A DNA stretch of 64,000 bases. It comes from Candidatus Versatilivorator sp. (GTDB lineage Bacteria; Acidobacteriota; Terriglobia; Versatilivoradales; Versatilivoraceae). The number at the start of each line of letters is the position of its first letter. Within the stretch, counting starts at the first letter, position 1. The DNA lies in assembly GCA_965207735.1 (NCBI GenBank), contig OZ242296.1:1440001-1504000 (forward strand). Reading direction: 5' to 3'. The notes below the pieces were generated by a model, which searched no databases, had not been told where the DNA came from, and worked only from the letters and a program-made list of their open reading frames with translations. This document shows positions 10,627 to 28,610 of this stretch, one piece after another. Made by a program: the position numbers and the translations under genes.

Positions 10627-10852
10627 CTTGGTGATTGAGCAAAAATAAACCAGTCGGACGGTAAGGTAAACCGAAAACAGGCCCGGGGCGGGGTGTTTGT
10701 CCCCCACCAGCTCGACTGCGGGCTCCGCTAACGGGACGCCGCGTTGGCCCTTCTCCGGATCGACTGCTGGCTGCGCCCTCCCTCCGGAGAACGCCCTCTC
10801 ATTGCCCATCGACCCCCTTGGAGACATGCTAAGCCCCACACAAGAAGACTAG

Positions 10853-12550
10853 CCCGCATTTCTCACCAGAGTTCGCACAGGAGCGGTAAAAGGGGCCATG
10901 GAGGCATTTGAGGCCGAGTTTAACAACGTTGGTGGCTGGATCGGTAGGCAAAGGCCAACAGCGGAGGCTTCTGAGGCTCTCCGAGGAACCTCAGGCGGCA
11001 TTTTCCCTCGAAAACAGCGACACCTCTGCCATCGGGCCTGGTGGCCGCGTCTTCAAGGGCCAGGAGTGACGGTCGGGTCAGGGCACCTCAGGGCGGCAGG
11101 TGAGCCCAAGCGATGCGGAACTCCCTCTGGTAAGGACATCCGGAAGCCATGGCGACCTTGATGCGACGGACCGAGATGGTGACCTGAGCGCCGATCTTGA
11201 GCAGTTTGAGTCTGATGGAACCGACGGTGGCCCGGGCCAGGCAGGTGGATTGCAGCGCCCGCCGGCGCAAGCCCTCCACCAGCACATAGGCGAAAGAGGT
11301 CATCAGGAGCCGGAGCTGATTCGCCCGGAAGGAGTGGGTGGAGGTGCGATCGGCAAACAGGTCGAGTTGCTGCTCCTTGATGCGGTTTTCCATCTCACCG
11401 CGGGCACAGTAGATCTTCTCATAGAGGAACTGGGCGGGGTAGTCCTGGACCGACAGAGAGGTGACGACGAAGCGGGGGTTGGGGCCGCGGGGCAGGACCT
11501 CGGCTTTGGCGACCAGGCGGCGCTCGTGGGACCAGCTCTTGTGAGTGCGGTAGGAGAGGTCGGTGAAGATCCGGGCGGGCTGCTGTTGCTGGTCTGAGAG
11601 GGCCTGGGCCTGAGCCAACTCGGGGGCGATGGCGTCTTGGAGGCGGGAGTTGCGGGCCAGGCCGAAGAGATAGTCGACCTGATGCTGCTCACACCACCCC
11701 ATCAGCTCCTCACGGGCAAAGCCGGAGTCGGCCCGCAGCAGGATCTTGACCTGAGGCCAGACACGCCGTAGGCGGGAGACGATGCGCTGGACCTGCTCCA
11801 GAGCGCCGGCGGAGGCATCGATGTTGGCGGGTCTGAGCAGGGCCGAGAGCAGATGGCGGCCCGAGAAGATGTAGAGGGGCAGGTAGCAGTAGCCTCGGTA
11901 GTAGCCGTGGAAGAAGCGGTCCTCTTGTTCCCCGTGGAGGGGATCGTCAGTGGCGTCGAGGTCGAGGATGATCTCATCGGGGGGTTGGGGATGGGCTTGC
12001 AGAAACAGTTTCACCAGGAGGGCTTGCAAGGCCTCGGGGTCGTGGTCAATCTTGTGGTAGCGGGTGGGGCCTTGGGTGGGGGCGTGTTCGAGTCGGTTGA
12101 GGGTGCTCTTGCCTGCCAGGGGAGGCGAGTCGCCACGACGGCCTTTCTCTGAAAACAAGGCCATGAGGGGATCGTGACGGAGTTGGTCGTGGTCGATGAG
12201 ATCCTCGTAGCCGAGGGCGATGCCACGGATGCGCTGAGCGATGAGGGTGCGCAGGCTGTATTGGGTCCGCTTGGGGTCGCGGTGATCGGTGAAACAGTCG
12301 GCCACCTGGTCGGAGAGAGATAAGCCCCGATCCACCCGGCGCAACAGCAGGGAGCCGGCATCGGAAGTGATGGGACCGCCGTCGAAATCAGCCACCACGC
12401 GGCGGCGGCCGTGGGGTTCAAACTCCAGGGGTTTGGTGTTACACTGTGTCGGCATCGGTTCTCCTTTAAGAATCTGGTTAACTCCTTAGACAAGAGTATT
12501 TTACCAGATTCCGAGAACCGATGCTTCCTACCTCTGGTGAGAAATGCGGG
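10853..12550 (-). mobile_element. IS1380-family insertion sequence, 1698 bp, apparently intact
   Basis: Perfect 19-bp terminal IRs cccgcatttctcaccagag (10853-10871) and ctctggtgagaaatgcggg (12532-12550); CTAG flanks both ends (10849-10852, 12551-12554). Confidence 0.93.
11088..12455 (-). CDS. IS1380-family DDE transposase
   Basis: FDGGPITSDAG, GYEDL.DHD.LR.DP, LDLDATDDPLHG, LRADSGF, YCARGEMENRIKE. Confidence 0.95.
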   Translation of the reverse strand: MPTQCNTKPLEFEPHGRRRVVADFDGGPITSDAGSLLLRRVDRGLSLSDQVADCFTDHRDPKRTQYSLRTLIAQRIRGIALGYEDLIDHDQLRHDPLMALFSEKGRRGDSPPLAGKSTLNRLEHAPTQGPTRYHKIDHDPEALQALLVKLFLQAHPQPPDEIILDLDATDDPLHGEQEDRFFHGYYRGYCYLPLYIFSGRHLLSALLRPANIDASAGALEQVQRIVSRLRRVWPQVKILLRADSGFAREELMGWCEQHQVDYLFGLARNSRLQDAIAPELAQAQALSDQQQQPARIFTDLSYRTHKSWSHERRLVAKAEVLPRGPNPRFVVTSLSVQDYPAQFLYEKIYCARGEMENRIKEQQLDLFADRTSTHSFRANQLRLLMTSFAYVLVEGLRRRALQSTCLARATVGSIRLKLLKIGAQVTISVRRIKVAMASGCPYQREFRIAWAHLPP

Positions 12551-12556
12551 CTAGCC

Positions 12557-14183: not shown

Positions 14184-14226
14184 TTGACATGCAGACATTT
14201 GTCTGCTAAATATTCTCTTTTTGTTC
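14184..14226 (+). promoter_or_regulatory. imuA promoter with palindromic spacer and candidate LexA box
   Basis: TTGACA 14184-14189; GCAGACA-TT-TGTCTGC 14191-14206; ATTC-N7-GTTC 14212-14226. Confidence 0.5.
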
Positions 14227-14276
14227 CCTTTTTACGACTGCCTCTGAAGTACAGAGGGGTAGCCCCAGGAGAATAC

Positions 14277-14912
14277 ATGTCGGCTTTGCAGGCCAGTATC
14301 GCAAGGGACTTGCGGTCTCGACTCAAGGGAGCGGCAACGGAACCCCGAGGGGAAACACCGCTCTGGTCGCGAATGCAGTTGGCCGGACGCCTGTGCGAAC
14401 TTTCCTCCATTCCCGGATCCGCCCTGCTGACGGCTGCCTTCCGCCTGGTGCTGGACGCGCAGACGGAGGGTGAACCGGTGGCCTGGATTGCAGCGACGCC
14501 GGACACCTTCTTTCCCCCGGATGCCGCTGACAACGGTGTGGACCTGAACGCCCTGGTGGTGATTCGCGTGCCTGGCGCCCAGGCAGCGGCGCGCTCGGCA
14601 GACCGGCTCTTGCGGTCGGGCGCCTTCGGCCTGATCGTGATGGATCTGAACGCCAACCCCACCATTTCCATCCCCCTGCAGGCACGCCTGGTCCAGCAGG
14701 CGCGGACTCACGACACCGCCCTTCTCTGCCTGACTTCCAAAGCCCGGAACGCTCCTTCGCTGGGATCGCTGGTCTCTCTGAGAGGGCAAACCTCCTGCCG
14801 GCGCCTGGGAGCCGATCGCTTCCGGTACGACATCGAATTCCTGAAGGACAGACGCCATGGACCGGGTTGGCGCCACACCGAGATCTGCCGTGGACCGGAC
14901 GGCCTGCATTAA
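14277..14912 (+). CDS. imuA: ImuA/RecA-like protein of mutagenesis cassette
   Basis: LAGRLCELS, FFPPDAADNGVDL, ADRLLRSGAFGLIVMDL; AGGAGA ribosome site; first gene before imuB and dnaE2. Confidence 0.8.
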   Translation: MSALQASIARDLRSRLKGAATEPRGETPLWSRMQLAGRLCELSSIPGSALLTAAFRLVLDAQTEGEPVAWIAATPDTFFPPDAADNGVDLNALVVIRVPGAQAAARSADRLLRSGAFGLIVMDLNANPTISIPLQARLVQQARTHDTALLCLTSKARNAPSLGSLVSLRGQTSCRRLGADRFRYDIEFLKDRRHGPGWRHTEICRGPDGLH

Positions 14913-16332
14913 CATCCGGGCGCTGCCGCTGCAACTCCTGCTGAGGAGACATCCGGAGTGGAAGCAGCGGCCGGTGGCCGTGGTAGAGCAAGAAAAGCCT
15001 CAAAGCCCCCTCCTGTGGGTGAACGCCCCAGCCGGTCGGGCCGGCATCCGGTCGGGGATGCGCTACGCCTCCGCCCTTTCGCTGGACCGGGACCTGTGCG
15101 CCGGGACCGTTTCGGAGCAGGAAATCCGGGAGGCCGTCCGGCAGGTCCATCAACTGCTGGACCGCTTCAGTCCCCGGGTTGAGCCCTGTGAGGATGAGCC
15201 CGGCATCTTCTGGGCCGACGCCGGCGGACTCGACAAGCTCTACAGGACTCTCCAGGACTGGGCCCGGCAGATTGAACTCCACCTCTCCCGGCTGGAGTTT
15301 TCGGCCGGCATCGTCATCGGCTTCAGTCGTTTCGGCAGCTATGCCCTGGCCAAGGCAGAGAGGCTGGTGACGGTACTTCCCTCCCCCGAGGCGGAGCAGG
15401 CCCAAAGCCGCCAGGTAAGCCTGCTGCATCTGCAACTCGATCCCAGGCTGCGCGACCGGCTGGAGAAGCTGGCGATTCACACCCTGGAAGACCTGCTGCG
15501 GCTTCCCGAAGCCGGCATCCAACGCCACCTTGGCGAGCAGGCCCGCAACCTCCGTCGTCTGGCCTCGGGTGAGCTGTCGCGGCCGCTCCAGCCCCGAAGC
15601 ATCCCCCAGCCTCTCCACGCCCGCATGGACCTGAACGAGCCCGACCCTAATGCCCAGAGGCTGCTTTTCCGGATCAAGCAGTTGCTGGACCCCCTGTTGC
15701 GGGCGGCAGCGGAACGATACCAGGCGGCGGCAGCCCTCCAGTTGCAGCTTCGGCTGGAGAACGGAACCCGTCACCGTCAGCGCATCCAGCCGGCCCGGCC
15801 GACCCTGGAAGTTTCGGTCCTGCTGGACCTGGTCCGGTTGCGCCTGGAGAGGGTCTCCTTGTGCGCTCCTCTGCTGGAACTGTGCCTGGAGGTGGAAGCC
15901 GTCTGCGTCTCCGCCGAGACGCGGAATCTGCTGCAGCGCACCCCCCGCCGCAATGCCGAAGCGGCCCTGCAAGCCCTGGCCCGGGTGCGGGCCGAGTTCG
16001 GGCCCGATTCGGTGCTTTCGGCCCGGCTCAAACCGGGACATCTGCCCGAAGCCCGCTGGGAGTGGCAACCCCTCCACGGACTCACTCCAGCCACTCCCCG
16101 GCCGGGCCCCATCCGCCCCCTGGTACGCCGGGCCCATGCCCGTCCCAAGCTTCTCGACTGGAAGAGACCTCCGGGCCTGGAGCCTCTGCTCGGGTATCTG
16201 ATCAGTGGAGGATGGTGGAATCGGGAGGTTCGAAGAGACTATCGGTTCGTCAACACCAACCGGAGAGAGGTGCTCTGGGTCTATTACGATCCACAAGGAC
16301 GTCGCTGGTACTCCCAGGGCCGCGTGGAGTGA
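14857..16332 (+). CDS. imuB: ImuB (Y-family polymerase-like, non-catalytic)
   Basis: PVAVVE, AGIRSGM, FSPRVE, HLPEARW, C-terminal GGWWNREVRRDY; canonical acidic catalytic residues not evident. Confidence 0.85.
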   Translation: MDRVGATPRSAVDRTACINIRALPLQLLLRRHPEWKQRPVAVVEQEKPQSPLLWVNAPAGRAGIRSGMRYASALSLDRDLCAGTVSEQEIREAVRQVHQLLDRFSPRVEPCEDEPGIFWADAGGLDKLYRTLQDWARQIELHLSRLEFSAGIVIGFSRFGSYALAKAERLVTVLPSPEAEQAQSRQVSLLHLQLDPRLRDRLEKLAIHTLEDLLRLPEAGIQRHLGEQARNLRRLASGELSRPLQPRSIPQPLHARMDLNEPDPNAQRLLFRIKQLLDPLLRAAAERYQAAAALQLQLRLENGTRHRQRIQPARPTLEVSVLLDLVRLRLERVSLCAPLLELCLEVEAVCVSAETRNLLQRTPRRNAEAALQALARVRAEFGPDSVLSARLKPGHLPEARWEWQPLHGLTPATPRPGPIRPLVRRAHARPKLLDWKRPPGLEPLLGYLISGGWWNREVRRDYRFVNTNRREVLWVYYDPQGRRWYSQGRVE

Positions 16333-16341
16333 ACGCAAACC

Positions 16342-19300
16342 ATGACCGGACCGGCCCCTTCCTACGTTCCCCTCTGGTGCAAGAGCAACTACTCCTTTCT
16401 GGAAGGAGCCAGCCATCCCGAAGAGTTGGTCGATGCCTGCCGGCAGAAGGGCATTCCCGCCCTGGCCCTCACCGACCGCCACGGGGTGTACGGGATGGTC
16501 AGGGCCCATGTCCGCGCCCGCCGGCAGCGCATCCACCTGATCGCGGGGTCGCAGATCAGCCTGGGGGAGGGAGCCGAGATCCTGCTGCTGGTTGAGAACG
16601 AGGAAGGTTACCGCAACCTCTGCCGACTGCTGACCGACGGGCACCTGCGTTCCTCCAAGGGGAAGTGCAGCCTGGACGGGCAGGCGGTGTGCGGTTGCAA
16701 CCGCGGCTTGCTTGCCCTGTGGATCGGCCCTCCCGACCCCAGGGCTTCTCCGGAAGCTGCCTTCGAACCCCTCCTGGGGCAGTTCAAAGCGGCATTCGAA
16801 GACCGTCTCTACATCCTGCTGGCCCGACACCGCCGGGCGGAGGAGATCCTGCCGGAGATTCAGTTGCGAAAGCTGGCGCGCCGGTTCAGCCTCCCTACCG
16901 TGGCAGCCGTGGAGATCCTCTATCACGTTCCTGAACGGCGGCGCCTGCAGGACGTTCTGACCTGCATCCGGGAAGGAGTCACCCTGACCACGGCCGGCCG
17001 GCTCATCCGTCCCAACGACCAGCACGCCCTCAAGAGCCCCGAGGAGCTGGCCCGCCTCTTCAGCGACGATCCGGAGTCGGTCCGGCGGACCCTGGAGGTG
17101 GCCGCCCGCTGTTCCTTTTCGCTGCAGGAACTGCGTTACCGCTATCCACTGGAGCCTCTGCCGGAAGGAAAGACCTCCAGCCAGCACCTGCGGGACCGGA
17201 CCTTCGAGGGAGCCGCCCGCCGCCTGGGCAAAAAGTTCCACGGCCTGATTCCACAACTGCGAAAGGAGCTCGATCTCATCCGGGAGCTGGAGTACGAAGG
17301 CTATTTCCTGACCATGCACGAGATCGTCGAGTACTGCCACCGCCGGCACATCCTCTGCCAGGGCCGAGGATCGGCCGCCAACTCGGCGGTCTGTTTTGCC
17401 TTGGGGATCACCAGCGTGGACCCGACCCAGGTGGATCTCCTCTTCGAGCGCTTTCTGTCCAGGGAGAGGGCCGAGCCTCCGGATATCGACCTGGACATCG
17501 AGCACGACCGCCGGGAAGAGGTGATCCAGCATGTCTACGAAAAGTACGGGCGCGATCGTGCTGCCATGGTGGCCAACGTGGTCCGTTACCGGCGTCGGTC
17601 CGCCATCCGGGAAGTGGGCAAGGTGCTGGGGGTTGCGGCCACCAGCCTGGACCGCCTGGCCAAGCTGGTGTCCCACGATCACTGCAACGCCGAGTTCATC
17701 CGGCAGGCCGGACTCGATCCCGGCAACCCTGCCCTGCTCCACCTGGCCTCTCTGGTGGAAGAGATTCAGGATTTTCCCCGTCACCTCTCCATTCATCCCG
17801 GGGGCTTTCTGCTGGGTCATCGCCCCGTCCACGACCTGGTGCCGATCGAGAACGCCTCCATGCCGGGCAGGACGGTCATTCAGTGGGACAAGGAAGACGT
17901 GGACCAGGCCGGCCTGTTCAAGGTAGACCTGCTGGGGCTGGGCGCCCTCACCCACCTGCACCTCTGCTTCGATCTCCTGCGGCGGCACCGGCAACGGGAG
18001 CTTTCCCTGGCTACCATGCCCAAGGGGGACCCCTCGACCTTTGAAATGATCTGCCGCAGCGACACGGTGGGAGTGTTTCAGATCGAGAGCCGCGCCCAGA
18101 TGGCCATGTTGGGGCGCCTGAAGCCGCGCAGCTACTACGACCTGGTGATCGAGATCAGCATCGTGCGCCCCGGACCCATCACCGGCGGCATGGTCCATCC
18201 CTATCTGCGGCGGCGCAATGGCCAGGAGGAAGTCCAGTACCCTCACCCCAGCCTCATTCCCGTCCTGAAGAAGACCCTGGGCATCCCCCTGTTCCAGGAA
18301 CAGGTGATGCAGCTGGCCATGGTGGCGGCCGACTACTCTCCCGGAGAGGCCGACCAGTTGCGGCGGGACATGGCGGCCTGGCGGCGTTCAGGGCGGATCG
18401 AGCGGCACCGGCAGCGGCTGGTCACCCGCATGGTGGCCAAGGGGATTCAGCCCGAGTTTGCCGAGCGTGTCTTCCAGCAGATCCGCGGATTCGGCGAATA
18501 CGGCTTCCCCGAGAGCCATGCCGCCAGCTTTGCCCATATCGCCTATGCCACCGCCTACCTCAAATGCCACTACCCGGCCGAGTTTGTCTGCGCCCTGCTG
18601 AATGCCCAGCCGATGGGGTTCTACTCGGCTGCCACCATCGTCAACGACGCCCGCATTCATGGAATCGAGGTGCGTCCGGTCAGCATTCTCGACAGCCACT
18701 GGGACTGCAGCCTGGTCGAAATTGAGGGAGCTACTGGAGAATCCGCCCAGTTCGCGGTCCGCATGGGGCTGCGCTACGTCAAGGGGCTGGGGCGGGAAGA
18801 CTGGCACAGGCTGGCGGAAGCGGCCCGGCAGGCTCCCTTCCGCAACCTTCCGGACCTGGCCCGGCGGAGCCGGCTCCACCAGGACAAGCTGGAAGCTCTG
18901 GCCGAGGCCGGGGCCCTCGAGTGTCTCGGTCTGGACCGTCGAGGGGCTCTTTGGCAGATTCAGGGACTGACCACCGAACCCCGGCCCCTGCTGCCCCTGG
19001 CCGGCCGCGATCCCTCGCCCCGGTTCCCCTCCCTGAGCGGGCTGGAAACCATCCTCTGGGACCATCGGGCCAGCAGCCACAGCTCCCGGGCCCACCTCCT
19101 GAAACCGCTGCGCCCCACTCTGGAAGTCCAGGGGCTGCCCACCGCGCGCCAACTCAACCGGATGCCGAACGGCCGCCTGGTCCGCTATGCCGGCATGGTC
19201 ATCTGCCGCCAGCGGCCGGGGACCGCGGGCGGAGTCACCTTCATGACCCTGGAAGACGAGACCGGCTTCGTCAACCTGGTCATCTGGAAGCAGACCTTCG

Positions 19301-19455
19301 AGCGCTATTCCCTGCTGGCCAAGACGCTTTCCTGCATGGGGGTCACCGGGAATCTGCAGGTGGCGGAAGGAGTCACCCACCTGGTGGTCCGAAAAATCTG
19401 GAAGCCGGAGCTGGAGAAGGAATCCCTCCACCTGAAGAGCCGGGACTTCCACTGA
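16342..19455 (+). CDS. dnaE2: Error-prone DNA polymerase DnaE2 (ImuC)
   Basis: PHP domain ([15 protein letters not shown]), [27 protein letters not shown]-terminal SRDFH signature. Confidence 0.96.
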
Positions 19456-23880: not shown

Positions 23881-24309
23881 TCAAATTACGTAGAAGGACT
23901 GATGGTCAGCTCCGGGAACCACGCTTGGCGAGATGCGGGCATCGAATGTAACGAAGCGCCCTTGCTGCTCAACGGCGAGCGCCAACAGATAAACATCGCT
24001 GATCTGTTTGGAGCCAACTACCCGATGCCAATCTGCAACGCCCGGCTGCAGAAGACTGATTTGATCGGGCCAGAATTGATGGTGGCTGGTGGCCGTTGCC
24101 TCAAAGAGGCGTTGGGCAACGAGGGACGCTGCCAGGCTATTGGGATAGGCCGGGTGGGCCATGACCCGCAAACACCCATTCTGGGTGATTGGGCAGGTCG
24201 CCCAACCGTGTTGGATGTTGTCTCTCAACCACCGCCTGGCGGACTCGTGATGCAGGTGTTCGGCATCCAGCAAGGCGATCAGGACGTTCACATCCAGTAG
24301 CGCTCGCAT
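23881..24309 (-). CDS. vapC: VapC-family PIN toxin
   Basis: LLDVNVLIAL, WATCPITQNG, QISDVYLLALA, FVTFD. Confidence 0.9.
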   Translation of the reverse strand: MRALLDVNVLIALLDAEHLHHESARRWLRDNIQHGWATCPITQNGCLRVMAHPAYPNSLAASLVAQRLFEATATSHHQFWPDQISLLQPGVADWHRVVGSKQISDVYLLALAVEQQGRFVTFDARISPSVVPGADHQSFYVI

Positions 24310-24560
24310 CAGTCGCCCATCTCTTCGCGCAGCCGTCCGATCAGTTCGTTGGTGACGACACCGCCGCGTTTGGGAAACGGACGAAAGCCAAACTCGGCGC
24401 CGGGCTCTTCCGTTTGGCTATCCGGGTCCTCCGGTCCGGCCGGAGCCAGCGATTGCCGAAGCATGTCCGATATCACCGCGCTGGCCGATTTCGACTTGCG
24501 TTTTGCGAGTTCCTTGACGGCAATCAGCAAGTCATCGTCGATATTCAGAGTCGTTCGCAT
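24309..24560 (-). CDS. vapB: VapB-like antitoxin
   Basis: MRTTLNIDDDLL...VISD.LR, GVVTNELI..LRE; TGATG overlap with toxin. Confidence 0.88.
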   Translation of the reverse strand: MRTTLNIDDDLLIAVKELAKRKSKSASAVISDMLRQSLAPAGPEDPDSQTEEPGAEFGFRPFPKRGGVVTNELIGRLREEMGD

Positions 24561-24698
24561 GGCTGAATCCCAACCGGAAGATCACAAGGATTGATGCTAC
24601 CGCACTATGCATCACGCATCAATGTTCTTCGGCGGAAAAAATCCCCCGGCTTTCGAGGCCTTCACTCGTGAGCCGAATGCAGCCGGCGAAGCTGGAGG

Positions 24699-25567
24699 GT
24701 AGAGTCGAGGACTGGCGCGTTGACTATAGGGTCCGGTGGCTATTCCGTCGCTTTCGCTTCGGGCCTCAGTCCGGCTCCCTTATCACGTTTCCAGTCCCCG
24801 CTCTCCGAACCGGACGTGCGGTTTTCCCGCATCTCGGCTCTCCAGTGGGATCATGCGTCTCGCACACAGGTCCCCGCTCGCATCCGTGGACGACTCCTAT
24901 GGGATTGGCACCCGTCCCCCACTCCATCCACTTCCGCTCCCGGGTTGCCGCCAGGCCTGTTGATGCCCTGACGACGCCGTCCTCCTCCGACGACCCTTTC
25001 ACTTTTGCATGTGATGCTTCCGGAGTCTCCGGCCCTTTTTTGGTCGGGGTTTCAGGCTTTCGCCACTCCCGGGACCCTTCCCCCTTCGGTCACCGCTCCT
25101 CACCTGAGGCCCCTTCCCTCCACCGGTATTACCCGGCTTCTCCGGTACTACAGGCCTCTCCGCCACCCTGTCGGCCTAGACTGACTCTCGCGAGCTTCCG
25201 GTTCGGTGCGTGCCTCACCACCCACAGGGCTTCCCATGTTGCTGCCTTCTTCCCCTTCCATGCGTGCCAGCGCCACTACCCCGGCGGGTCCAAAGGGGTG
25301 CCCGCGTCGCTCGCTTCCCCCTCCGTCTTCGGCCTTCCCCATTTCTCAGGTGGGTCGGCCCCCGCATTGCCCGTTTCGAGGCCTGCTCGACGTTCACTCG
25401 CGTTCCGGCCCGCATGCTCGCTGAACCGCCTTAAGCGGCCCTTTGACACCAGAGGGCTTCAGACCATATCGTTACCTCCATGATCCGCCCTGGCTGCTAC
25501 CAACCGGAGCGACAGTTGTTGGACGGGTTTCGCACCCGTTGGAAGAAGGCGCCTTTCCATGGCGCAC
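24699..25567 (-). ncRNA. ORF-less group II intron (IIB-like), 869 nt
   Basis: 5' end GUGCG at 25567; domain III-like GGAGAGGCCUGUAGUACC...GGAGGGAAGGGGCCUC; domain V GAGCCGAGAUGCGGGAAAACCGCACGUCCGGUUC (24840-24807); domain VI ending CCAGUCCUCGACUCUAC at 24699; no RT ORF. Confidence 0.9.
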
Positions 25568-25584
25568 TGAGAAATGCGGGCTAA
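25568..25584. mobile_element. IS1380-type terminal inverted repeat (outer part) interrupted by the intron
   Basis: tgagaaatgcgggcta identical to the IS end at 12538-12553; the next IR bases (gg) resume at 24697-24698 across the intron. Confidence 0.8.
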
Positions 25585-25677: not shown

Positions 25678-26514
25678 CTACTGACCGGACGGGGGCTCGG
25701 GGGCGGCCGGTTCGGTTTGCGTCTTGGCCTGAGCCTCACGGGCCTGGCCGGCCATCTCGGCCAGATCTTCGATGGTGCGCAGGATGGGCAGAATCAATCG
25801 ATTGCCGCTGAGACGGGAACCGCCGAAGGCCATGCCGGCCGGGTTTTGCTTGGTCACCAGAATGCCCAGCGGCGCTCCCTGGGAGTCGTATACGATACAG
25901 CCCAGGTTGGTGGAGAGAGAGGCGTCGCACACATAGAAGGGGCGGGGGCCCTTTACCTTGGCTTCCACACGGCCCAGGTGCAACCGGATGGCTCGATTGC
26001 CGATCTTGCCCAGACGACCCACCGCAAAGACCTGATCCAGAACCTGAGGCTCCTGCCCGGCGGCGTCCAATGCCACCGCCTTGAAGGGATCCTCGGCTTC
26101 ACGGGGCTTGATGAAGATCATGTCCAGGTCGCTGTCCTTCAGGATCACTTCGGCGTCCACCTCGGTTCCGTCATCCAGAATGAGCGTGGTCTCCTTGAAC
26201 TCCGATTTGATATCGGCTCGGGTGGTGGCCCGCATCATGATGGTTGGGTCGAGCGCCGCGGCCGAAGCAACCGTCAACCCCGATCCGTCAATGACGGTTC
26301 CGTTGGCTTCTATCTTTCGTTCCTGGTCCCGGCTCTGGCCGCGGATGGAAAATTTGATTCCCATGACGACCCGCACCGTGACCAGCGCGCCCTTCGATTG
26401 CTCTGCCACGGATCGGGCCGTTTCCCGGATATCGCCGGCCTGGGCGACGGATGCCAGGAGCAATGCGATGACCGGATACAAGCAGCACTTTAGCGGACGG
26501 GCAAGGTTGATCAT
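25678..26514 (-). CDS. Secreted trypsin-like protein lacking catalytic His/Ser (pseudo-protease)
   Basis: Signal peptide (LLLASVAQA), NGTVIDGSGLTV, AEVILKDSDLDMIFIK, NLGCIVY in place of GNSGGP; ATGA overlap with upstream protease. Confidence 0.65.
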   Translation of the reverse strand: MINLARPLKCCLYPVIALLLASVAQAGDIRETARSVAEQSKGALVTVRVVMGIKFSIRGQSRDQERKIEANGTVIDGSGLTVASAAALDPTIMMRATTRADIKSEFKETTLILDDGTEVDAEVILKDSDLDMIFIKPREAEDPFKAVALDAAGQEPQVLDQVFAVGRLGKIGNRAIRLHLGRVEAKVKGPRPFYVCDASLSTNLGCIVYDSQGAPLGILVTKQNPAGMAFGGSRLSGNRLILPILRTIEDLAEMAGQAREAQAKTQTEPAAPEPPSGQ

Positions 26515-28610
26515 GGCTCCACTCCATCCAACGGAGCGGCGCCATTGCCCTGGCTCCAGTTGGGCTGCAACTCCAGAAAAAGAGTGTAAATGCCCCGCTT
26601 CACAAACAGCGGGATGTTGGCTGGTTTCCGGTTGCCGGCGGCCTCCAGGTGAGCCTCCAGATCCTGCACTCCCCTGACTTCTTGGCGATCCACGGCCTTG
26701 ATGAGGTCTCGAGCCTTCAATCCGGCCACTGCAGCCCATCCTCCCGCATCCACCTGCGAGACCAGGGCACCGCTTTCCTCCTCCGACCAGCGATTGGCGA
26801 CGCGGTCCAGGTAGGAGATATCCCGGGCCTTGAATTCGAAGCGGAGGTCCTCGTAGACCGGCAACTCTCCTTCCGAGGTGGGCATGGCGACCAGCTCGGC
26901 ACTCAGGGCGCTGGTCTCTCCCGACCGTATCAGGGTGAATTCGGCCTGGCTGCCGACCCGGTAGGCCCGAATCATGGTCTTGAATACCTCGGCGTCCTGG
27001 GGTTCGGAAGCCTCGATGACCTGGGAATCGACATGAGTCAGGATATCCCCCACCTTGAAGCCGGCGGCTTCGGCGGAACTGCCGGGATAGACCTGGGTAA
27101 TTCTCACCCCCTTCTTGCCCGGAAGGTCGAGGGCCTTGGCCAGCTTGCGCGACAGCACCTGCGTCGCGACCGGCAGCCAGGCCTTTCTGGCTTCGGCCGG
27201 GGGCCTCTGCGGGCGCCTCAGACCCACTTCCACCAGGGTCAGCAGGCGCTCGGAACGGCGATCGAACGCGACCACCACCGGGACGGGGCCTTGCCGGCCG
27301 CGGCAGATCTCGGTGGTCAATCGATCGAAGGAGCGCACTCCCTCCACCGCCTTTCCGTCGATCTCCACGATGACGTCGCCCGGCCGCAGGCGGGGCACGG
27401 CCTTGTCGGCCGCCCCCCCGGGTCGAATGCTGCTGACCAGCACGCCCTCCAGACTCGGGCGGTGCAGTTGCTTGGATTCCAGCCGGGTCAAACGCCTGAG
27501 GGTTATTCCCCATTCCCTGGCCTCGGCCTCCCTGCCCCTGGCGTCATCGCGCAACTCGGGAGTGATGCTCAAGGATTGCTCGACCTCTCCCCGCTTCACC
27601 TTCACCTGCATGGGGACGCCCACGGTCTTGGAGAGCAGTCGCCGAATCAAGCCCGGCATCTCTTCCTCGAATTTGACCCGGACCGGCTCACCGTCAATGC
27701 TCAAAAGGATGTCGCCCGGCCGGAGCCCGGCCCGGTCCGACGGAGAGCCCGGCAGTACTCCCGACACCAGCGCCCCCTGGTCCGCCGTGGCTGTCGCACC
27801 GTTTTTCAACAGCGGCTGAAAGCCGGCGCCCACCCAGGACCGGCGCACCCGGCCATGCTCGATCAATTTCTGGGAGACCGGTTGAGCCAATTCGCTGGGG
27901 ATGGCGCCCCCCAGACCGAGCCCGATCTCGTTGATGCCCACGATCTCACCCCGCAGGTTCACCAGCGGGCCGCCGGAGTTCCCCGGGAAAATGCCGGCGT
28001 CGTGTCCGATCCACTTGACCACGGATCCGACGTTTTCCCCATCCAGCCGCAGGGGAGCGCTCATGCGCTTGGGAATCATCATGTCCTTGTTGGAGACCAC
28101 TCCGCGGGTCACCGACTGCGAGATGGCCAGGGGACATCCCATGGCCAGGACGGGCTCTCCCACCGCAAGGGCCTCCGAGCTGCCGAATCGGGCGATCGGC
28201 AGGGGTCCGCCGGCGGGGTCCCGGGAGGACATGTCCAGCTTGATCACGGCAATATCGGCCAGGGCGTCGGTCCCCACCAGCTCGGCTTCCAACTCTTCCC
28301 GAGTGGAGAGGACGCAGCGAATCGAGGTCGCCTTGCCGGCCACGTGGTGGTTGGTGATGACATAGCCCTCAGGGGATATGATGACCCCGCTCCCGGTGGA
28401 TTCGAACTTGCGCCCTCTGCCTCCCCCGTGCCGCAGAGACAACACATAGATTTGAACCAGGGCCGGATAGACGGCATCGATGGCCCGCTGGACCTGCTGC
28501 TCGGTCCCCGGCCTCCTGCTCGCCTCCGCCGCTGCCGCGGGGGAAGCCAAAAGGGAGGACACCACCAACGCCACCAACCCCGAGACTCCCATTTTCCTTC
28601 GATGAACCAT
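26511..28610 (-). CDS. HtrA/DegP-like serine protease with multiple PDZ domains
   Basis: GSGVIISPEGYVITNHHV, DIAVIKL, IFPGNSGGPL; four PDZ-like segments (GLRPGDIL, LRPGDVI, GFKVGDIL, GLKARDLI); start uncertain. Confidence 0.88.
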   Translation of the reverse strand: MVHRRKMGVSGLVALVVSSLLASPAAAAEASRRPGTEQQVQRAIDAVYPALVQIYVLSLRHGGGRGRKFESTGSGVIISPEGYVITNHHVAGKATSIRCVLSTREELEAELVGTDALADIAVIKLDMSSRDPAGGPLPIARFGSSEALAVGEPVLAMGCPLAISQSVTRGVVSNKDMMIPKRMSAPLRLDGENVGSVVKWIGHDAGIFPGNSGGPLVNLRGEIVGINEIGLGLGGAIPSELAQPVSQKLIEHGRVRRSWVGAGFQPLLKNGATATADQGALVSGVLPGSPSDRAGLRPGDILLSIDGEPVRVKFEEEMPGLIRRLLSKTVGVPMQVKVKRGEVEQSLSITPELRDDARGREAEAREWGITLRRLTRLESKQLHRPSLEGVLVSSIRPGGAADKAVPRLRPGDVIVEIDGKAVEGVRSFDRLTTEICRGRQGPVPVVVAFDRRSERLLTLVEVGLRRPQRPPAEARKAWLPVATQVLSRKLAKALDLPGKKGVRITQVYPGSSAEAAGFKVGDILTHVDSQVIEASEPQDAEVFKTMIRAYRVGSQAEFTLIRSGETSALSAELVAMPTSEGELPVYEDLRFEFKARDISYLDRVANRWSEEESGALVSQVDAGGWAAVAGLKARDLIKAVDRQEVRGVQDLEAHLEAAGNRKPANIPLFVKRGIYTLFLELQPNWSQGNGAAPLDGVEP

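Follow-up and report, generated by a model that had tools for sequence, protein, structure and literature searches.

The 64,000-nt stretch of DNA analysed here (the window) carries an ORF-less group II intron which, we are fairly confident, has been mobile recently and is programmed for IS1380-type ends, retrohoming by means of the reverse transcriptase (RT) of sister introns and bearing a domain I acquired by recombination. The association with these ends is real and far beyond chance: the 5.26-Mb host genome (G000) contains 28 ORF-less copies, 99.6-100% identical and 22 of them identical throughout, and all 28 occupy position 13/14 of an IS1380-type inverted repeat, with a perfect 13-mer in 27. 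The match to the inverted repeat is thus no one-off, and no copy sits in unrelated sequence; all lie in mobile-element ends or their relics and none in a gene. Similarly, among the matches listed for the same-genus genomes G005, G009 and G011, 22 of 24 full-length copies occupy the same site and two are off-target.

In the window the intron lies on the minus strand, as do its parts and exons, the trypsin-like gene before it and the IS1380 element with its transposase, and runs from GUGCG at 25567 to AC at 24699 (24699..25567, 869 nt). In run X4, which comes from another strain, a 4745-nt contig has 24698 directly followed by 25568, with precisely the 869 nt missing, and this natural empty allele fixes the intron boundaries; the first-pass annotation had given a span of 24697..25584, whose flanking bases are exon. 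The assignment to the ORF-less group II introns stands, as the sequence matches the Rfam models group-II-D1D4-4 (80.8 bits) and Intron_gpII (41.2 bits) and a tblastn search found no RT remnant inside it (best E 0.19), the longest sense ORF from an ATG being 66 aa. The RNA has all six domains with zero ORF, and the marks of a group II intron of IIB type are present, namely GUGYG...AY ends, the AGC triad of domain V, the bulged A of domain VI and the EBS1-IBS1, EBS2-IBS2 and EBS3-IBS3 pairings. Domain V (24807..24840) contains the AGC triad and a 5-nt GAAAA loop and is followed by a long domain VI (24701..24803, bulged A at 24705); together they fold with z = -5.26, while the values for whole domain I (-1.45) and for domains II-IV (-1.06) are uninformative alone. 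The alpha-prime segment (25306..25312; alpha at 25513-25507) lies in a terminal loop, which is a IIE/IIF feature. Domain IV (24841..25112) lacks an ORF and is common to the ORF-less lineage, and its start is likely a decayed ORF start that may double as an RT docking site.

The 5′ exon (25568..25580) consists of the 13 outermost bp of an inverted repeat of IS1380 type, here a solo relic, and supplies IBS1 at -1 to -6 and part of IBS2 at -11 to -13. Upstream of it stands TTAG (25581..25584), a target-duplication sequence of YTAR type whose last base is position -14 and could be read by EBS2, and the 3′ exon starts with CC (24697..24698), repeat positions 14-15, of which the first C is IBS3. The 18-nt identity of the rejoined exons to both ends of the IS1380 element in the window, pointed out in the first-pass annotation, is real, except that TAG, three of these nucleotides, comes from the target duplication and not from the repeat. 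The window copy is one of three at unpaired sites, and once joined, its flanks match the other ends for no more than 21-29 nt, so that a position inside an IS or MITE can be rejected. It is absent from all 13 same-genus orthologous loci (420 nt compared per locus). An assembly artefact is rejected by depth, which in X1/X2 is 223-241 over the intron and 6-10 over the flanks.

A same-strand gene with a trypsin-like domain (25678..27513) stops 110 nt short of the intron, this gap contains no terminator-like site, and read-through transcription into the intron is likely, judging from this layout. Contigs from the RNA libraries X15, X17, X19 and X20 include the part specific to the ORF-less intron at high contig depth, and two RNA runs with the intron bear the label sponge metagenome; as these are contigs from other strains and of a multi-copy sequence, which cannot show level, strand or splicing, we do not use them as evidence, and no spliced-exon or circle joint was found among the contigs of four RNA runs. 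We also note, just downstream of the intron (23881-24560), a PIN-domain gene with a probable small antitoxin gene, both absent from the 13 orthologous loci compared, and farther off (14184-19455) consecutive RecA-like, IMS-family and DnaE-like genes, whose layout we take to be that of an imuABC mutagenesis cassette.

The window also includes an IS1380-family element with both ends empty (10853..12550), bounded by 19-bp repeats (10853-10871 and 12532-12550) and a CTAG duplication (10849-10852 and 12551-12554) and encoding a 455-aa transposase (11088..12455; NF033539, 410.6 bits). Elements of this family have short terminal repeats that start with CC and make a 4-bp duplication, and both traits are found here along with the transposase. 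The 19-bp repeat starts with CCCG and is split 13|6 by the intron, and of the 21 IS-size elements in the genome, 20 are flanked by two matching copies of the 4-bp YTAR duplication. As 18 of 20 IS copies are identical, the order of events among them cannot be read. A second source of the same ends is a 243-bp MITE family, the 33 copies of which have only their 17-bp ends in common with IS1380, the interior being unrelated; they fall into 32 haplotypes and differ at 10.5 columns on average. The genome has a further ~85 unpaired or degenerate repeat ends.

When the introns were removed by script and the repeat sites counted, 213 sites were obtained (≤1 mismatch in 15 nt). Six intron copies lie in full IS elements, 19 in MITEs and three in solo or unpaired repeats, which corresponds to an occupancy of 6/21 IS-size elements, 15/33 243-bp MITEs and 4/8 MITEs of 130-165 bp. 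The target originally proposed, the ends of IS1380, is therefore right as to the repeat, but the ends in question are mostly those of MITEs or relics and not of IS1380 proper. Both inverted repeats of the IS are homed into (four copies at the right end, IRR, and two at the left, IRL). Mutual exclusion of the two ends of an element was considered and set aside, because none of 26 occupied elements being doubly filled is too few and one locus (L034) consists of two opposed copies 217 bp apart.

Several further arrangements of these introns were seen. In G009, IS1634-like elements interrupt both an ORF-less intron and RT introns (L043, L044, L045), so that nesting goes both ways; ORF-less introns form head-to-tail arrays with units of 719 nt and 895 nt, up to six consecutive (L264 in G054, L265 in G060); and at a palindrome target of the host genome (G000:C1:4261108-4260992) lies a 117-nt internally deleted ORF-less intron that keeps the first 84 and the last ~37 nt.

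Target choice can be assigned to short segments of domain I. EBS1 is UGAGAA (25343..25348), in a 9-nt loop (25350-25342) closed by CCCA/UGGG with the delta C at 25349; EBS2 is GGGC (25369..25372), complementary to exon positions -11 to -14; and EBS3 is the G at 25276. On this assignment EBS2 would read the transposon end's last three bases and the duplication base at -14. The 9-nt segment UGAGAAAUG had been noted as a whole as complementary to exon positions -1 to -9, and such a 9-bp EBS1 is rejected: only its UGAGAAA is in the loop, and its last UG (positions 227-228) belongs to the stem. The two segments noted just upstream fared differently, CGGGC containing EBS2 (25372-25369) and AAUGCGGG proving to be part of an internal stem, the 5′ arm of which (25361..25365) pairs with 25288-25284. 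Specifically, of 71 distinct domain I cores, 69-71 keep the pairing of the GCGGG of AAUGCGGG with CCCGC (25288-25284), with compensatory G-C/A-U exchange, and the CCCA/UGGG stem under the EBS1 loop is kept just as often (69-71/71).

Covariation between introns and their targets was scored over 26 intron types, drawn from the introns of the host genome and 76 loci from other genomes, after tandem copies and 31 of 191 loci without found anchors had been dropped. EBS1 pairs at 5.01 of 6 positions as against 3.17 with shuffled targets, and EBS2, taken as the four bases after CCUCGAAAC, at 3.32 against 2.32; because kin in this set are not independent, the permutation p values are overstatements. 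For EBS3, 53 of 59 cases are Watson-Crick. The segment AAUGCGGG does not track its targets (3.64 observed, 3.75 shuffled), and introns with an altered form of it (L036 in G011, L041-L043 in G009) occupy the same site, which, together with its place in an internal stem, leads us to reject it as EBS2.

EBS pairing as the means of targeting the IS1380 repeat, as first proposed, is thus supported by the 28 placements and by covariation that extends to a repeat variant elsewhere: in Bryobacterales (G047) the repeat ends in ATCTCA and EBS1 is UGAGAU. The same target is used in Gemmatimonadota by an ORF-less intron (L197) and by RT-encoding introns (L140, L147), and in Bryobacterales by ORF-less introns (L200, L207), all adjoining IS1380 transposases at 52-60% identity. 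An RT-encoding sister with EBS1 UGUUAA holds the same 13/14 register in an IS1634-family end. Introns of this latter type recur at IS1634 ends (L083, L084, L051-L055 in G008; also in G005, G009 and G011), and in G009 one RT intron (L046/L220) has an IS1634 end as its 5′ exon and an IS1380 end as its 3′ exon, a mixture likely due to recombination between two intron copies. The targets of more distant RT relatives (L095, L118, L144, L096, L098, L151), compared by eye, resemble ends of other IS families and may be such.

The host genome contains 15 RT-encoding sisters of ~1995 nt, 14 of them with an unbroken 452-455-aa ORF with a YADD motif, and no other class of RT was found in this genome. Over nt 1-470 the sisters are 85-92% identical to the ORF-less intron; at E ≤ 0.1 their RTs match no Pfam domains but RVT_1 and GIIM, and an endonuclease domain is absent. 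The first-pass annotation had called for an RT-encoding sibling with the same EBS, and one exists: G000:5004992 has the same EBS1 and occupies the same position within the repeat of a divergent IS1380. Thirteen of the 15 (G000:C1:409328 and 12 more) are aimed at an intergenic repeat of CACGAA type, into which IS1380 inserts too, and one lies at a palindrome, which is home to a different ORF-less copy as well. The helper RT probably need not have the same target as the ORF-less intron, since in G011 the six of nine intact RT introns that were checked all have EBS1 UGUUAA, the sole IS1380-type RT found there being truncated; an RT of the same specificity is therefore not required by the data. 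Plasmid sequences match the RT at 45-54% identity and bear no class labels (best 40 of 110 matches). Separately, one other genome (G004) holds eighteen copies of an unrelated RT (33% identity, 526-aa frame).

The two halves of the ORF-less introns have different affinities. Over the first 400 nt they group by target with RT introns, at 92-97%, 98% and 92-96% identity for three targets, whereas the IS1380 type is 86-88% identical to the other target types. Over the last 175 nt, all seven same-genus ORF-less introns are 96-99% identical to one another and 63-66% identical to all nine RT introns compared. Up to nt 397, 55 of 59 informative sites of the ORF-less copy aimed at the palindrome agree with its RT sister; from nt 410 on, 29 of 32 agree with the window intron. 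In the window intron itself, the zone of switch from RT-intron-type to ORF-less-type similarity is at 25105..25170 (intron nt ~398-463). Domain IV is common to full-length ORF-less relatives from Gemmatimonadota, Alphaproteobacteria and other Acidobacteriota: over nt 461-580 the identity to introns of other phyla is 64-68% in five of six, the sixth having a deletion. In trees of 24 introns with both ends parsed (10 ORF-less, 14 RT), domain I rejects a clade of ORF-less introns (p-AU 2e-105), the start of domain IV, where 123 columns of decayed non-coding sequence are compared with coding sequence and the bootstrap is not settled, shows it at 100/100, and domains V-VI do not reject it (p 0.5). 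RT introns swap too, as L092 has a domain I 95-99% like that of the window intron, while its ORF start more closely resembles the CACGAA type (91% vs 83%). As the ORF-less introns are one lineage by domain IV and their domain I groups with local RT introns, we interpret the pattern as swaps of the targeting module, and the window intron likely took its repeat-targeting domain I from sister introns by recombination.

The same data bear on whether each ORF-less copy might be a simple deletion derivative of a local RT intron, arisen repeatedly, with no persistent lineage and no module swapping. This would account for a domain I that in each ORF-less type is 92-98% identical to that of the same-target RT intron, and for the decayed ORF start visible in domain IV, but not for a 3′ end common to all seven ORF-less introns and remote from that of every RT intron compared, nor for a domain IV in common with ORF-less introns of other phyla; we regard it as largely refuted and give it very little credence. 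We lean instead towards a long-lived non-autonomous lineage that crosses phyla (Acidobacteriota, Gemmatimonadota and Alphaproteobacteria), keeps its chassis of domains IV-VI and repeatedly swaps in the domain I of a co-resident RT intron, with targets that include IS1380/MITE ends, palindromic repeats and CACGAA repeats. Such a lineage would be a bacterial counterpart of SINEs that exchange modules with LINEs, its helper outnumbered 28 to 1 at the common target.

How the copies spread is indicated by their strand. By global skew 22 of 28 copies have their sense strand on the G-rich strand, and by local skew 21-22 of 28 do, whereas of 184 empty sites 70-76 are so oriented (Fisher p 7e-5 to 1e-3). 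Of 25 occupied two-ended elements, 19-21 carry the intron at their G-rich end; against this bias, 6-7 of 28 copies are on the other strand, and the genome skew is mosaic. The G-rich strand is the lagging-strand template, which endonuclease-less introns prefer. For RmInt2 a preference for this template is stated in the available excerpt of its description (PMC4615759). The alternative is that the intron entered an IS or MITE end on one or a few occasions, after which the IS1380 transposase spread the composite, in keeping with the outer 13 bp of the repeat staying intact, with target duplications that match in 21 of 26 occupied elements and with the recent amplification of IS1380, and one MITE-intron pair is indeed identical over 1112 bp within different flanks. 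Matching duplications, however, are expected under either model, and that pair, the only identical one of 528, reflects either a single joint move or gene conversion; it is the sole hint of an intron and transposon moving together in the manner of an IStron. The 15 occupied 243-bp MITEs are of 14 different haplotypes and their introns are near-identical and placed at either end, so that the MITEs were colonised one by one. The use of both ends and of four element types, the strand bias within two-ended elements, the solo sites and the exact empty allele also speak against joint movement, as does multiplication where a close intact transposase is lacking: in G011 no IS1380 transposase exceeds 38% identity and in G005 the only close one is broken, yet each has at least 9-12 full ORF-less copies. 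These observations do not support the earlier suggestion that the intron spreads with the IS, and we judge transport by the transposase improbable.

It is also conceivable that the host keeps the intron as a defence, because IS1380 and MITE ends are silenced by it. The confinement of all copies to mobile-element ends or relics, with none in genes, would suit such a role, and a similar one has been argued for RmInt1 in the excerpt available (PMC5894124). Only six of 20 IS copies are hit, however, the IS has amplified recently all the same, most targets are old MITEs, and safe-site parasitism alone accounts for the pattern; a defensive role therefore seems highly unlikely to us. Still, we think it plausible that transposition from a split end is usually impaired, because the IS and the MITE have 17 terminal bases in common.

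We therefore favour retrohoming with a borrowed RT, which may proceed as follows. Read-in transcription from flanking genes would yield a precursor RNA, to whose domain IV the endonuclease-less RT/maturase of one of the 14 intact sisters could bind and so support splicing. The resulting RNP would reverse-splice mostly into the lagging-strand template at replication forks, and as each IS or MITE has two opposed repeats, one end would always present the favoured orientation. The intron would in this way colonise ends already in place, mostly those of MITEs and relics, and not ride the transposon. In the long term the ORF-less 3′ half would persist while domain I is exchanged with that of a co-resident RT intron, and the target would change with it.

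One neighbour of the target sites deserves mention. A 1588-bp IS1182-family element (G000:C1, e.g. L076:309-1631 and 12 more) abuts IS1380/MITE ends, adjoining them at a common CTAG in most of its 13 copies. Repeats beside its left end bear the intron in seven of nine cases, and among G-rich-strand sites the intron is present in 6/6 beside this end vs 17/56 (p = 0.0016). Candidate explanations are outward transcription, a favourable distal exon or a preference of IS1182 for intron-bearing ends; a consensus scan of the IS1182 end gave no outward promoter.

No other intron of the host genome is as numerous as the ORF-less one, whose lineage crosses phyla. If the swapping of domain I is true, it provides natural retargeting by module exchange and not only by point mutation of the EBS, and it bears on how introns escape saturation of their targets and on the design of endonuclease-less targetrons against IS ends. 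The system also lends itself to testing whether transposition is stopped by an intron within a terminal repeat. In SINE/LINE and MITE/IS pairs, the non-autonomous element persists through the recognition module of its autonomous partner; here, by comparison, the common part is a 5′ ribozyme domain that sets the choice of DNA target. The literature searched, which left out most subscription journals and theses, contained no report of ORF-less introns in IS1380 or MITE ends or of domain I exchange, and such introns may be catalogued in existing surveys. The three-tier arrangement itself is not new, as both TeI3 family F4 and RmInt2 had been published. Each tier is known, and it is the combination with MITE ends and a mosaic lineage across phyla that appears new.

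As to class, the structural marks make the window intron IIE/IIF-like and do not separate E from F/g3-g5. Judged against excerpts of the class descriptions, the likeness to classes E and F includes alpha-prime in a terminal loop and the 5-nt domain V loop (PMC3753933), a long domain VI, which is a IIF tendency, and a 450-aa RT without endonuclease (PMC3753933; PMC3552965), while the YADD of the sister RTs argues against g2, which has FADD (PMC3552965). According to the part of the report at hand, RmInt2 of Sinorhizobium meliloti GR4 homes into the inverted repeats of ISRm17 (PMC4615759), and homing into both inverted repeats of an IS is thus RmInt2-like behaviour. The window intron is not of RmInt2 type, however: as far as that text goes, RmInt2 has its own class D RT and seven copies and targets ISRm17 repeats, whereas the window intron is ORF-less, IIE/IIF-like and present in 28 copies and targets IS1380-family ends, mostly MITEs and solo repeats. 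The class D C-terminal motif LX3AX3PXLF[V/A]HW is absent from the ends of the sister RTs, read by eye. An increase of ORF-less introns in certain genomes, with a moderate strand bias, is described by Miura et al. in the portion available (PMC8919778). The closest parallel is TeI3 of Thermosynechococcus elongatus BP-1, whose ORF-less introns, in the excerpted account, derive from one ORF deletion, outnumber their RT-encoding sisters and were mobilised experimentally by 'driver' RTs while their EBS diverge, family F4 having a conserved site in ISEL1 (IS200) (PMC2882425). Like these, the window intron is ORF-less and accompanied by closely related RT-encoding introns in the same genome, and by analogy it would be mobile in trans, to which the 22 identical copies of 28 and the strand bias point indirectly. 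On the same partial account, TeI3 belongs to IIB1, with IEPs that have an endonuclease domain, and diverged in parallel after the deletion within one genome (PMC2882425), whereas the sister RTs of the window intron lack an endonuclease and the ORF-less lineage here extends over three phyla; unlike TeI3 as there described, it targets terminal repeats and appears to interchange domain I with RT introns.
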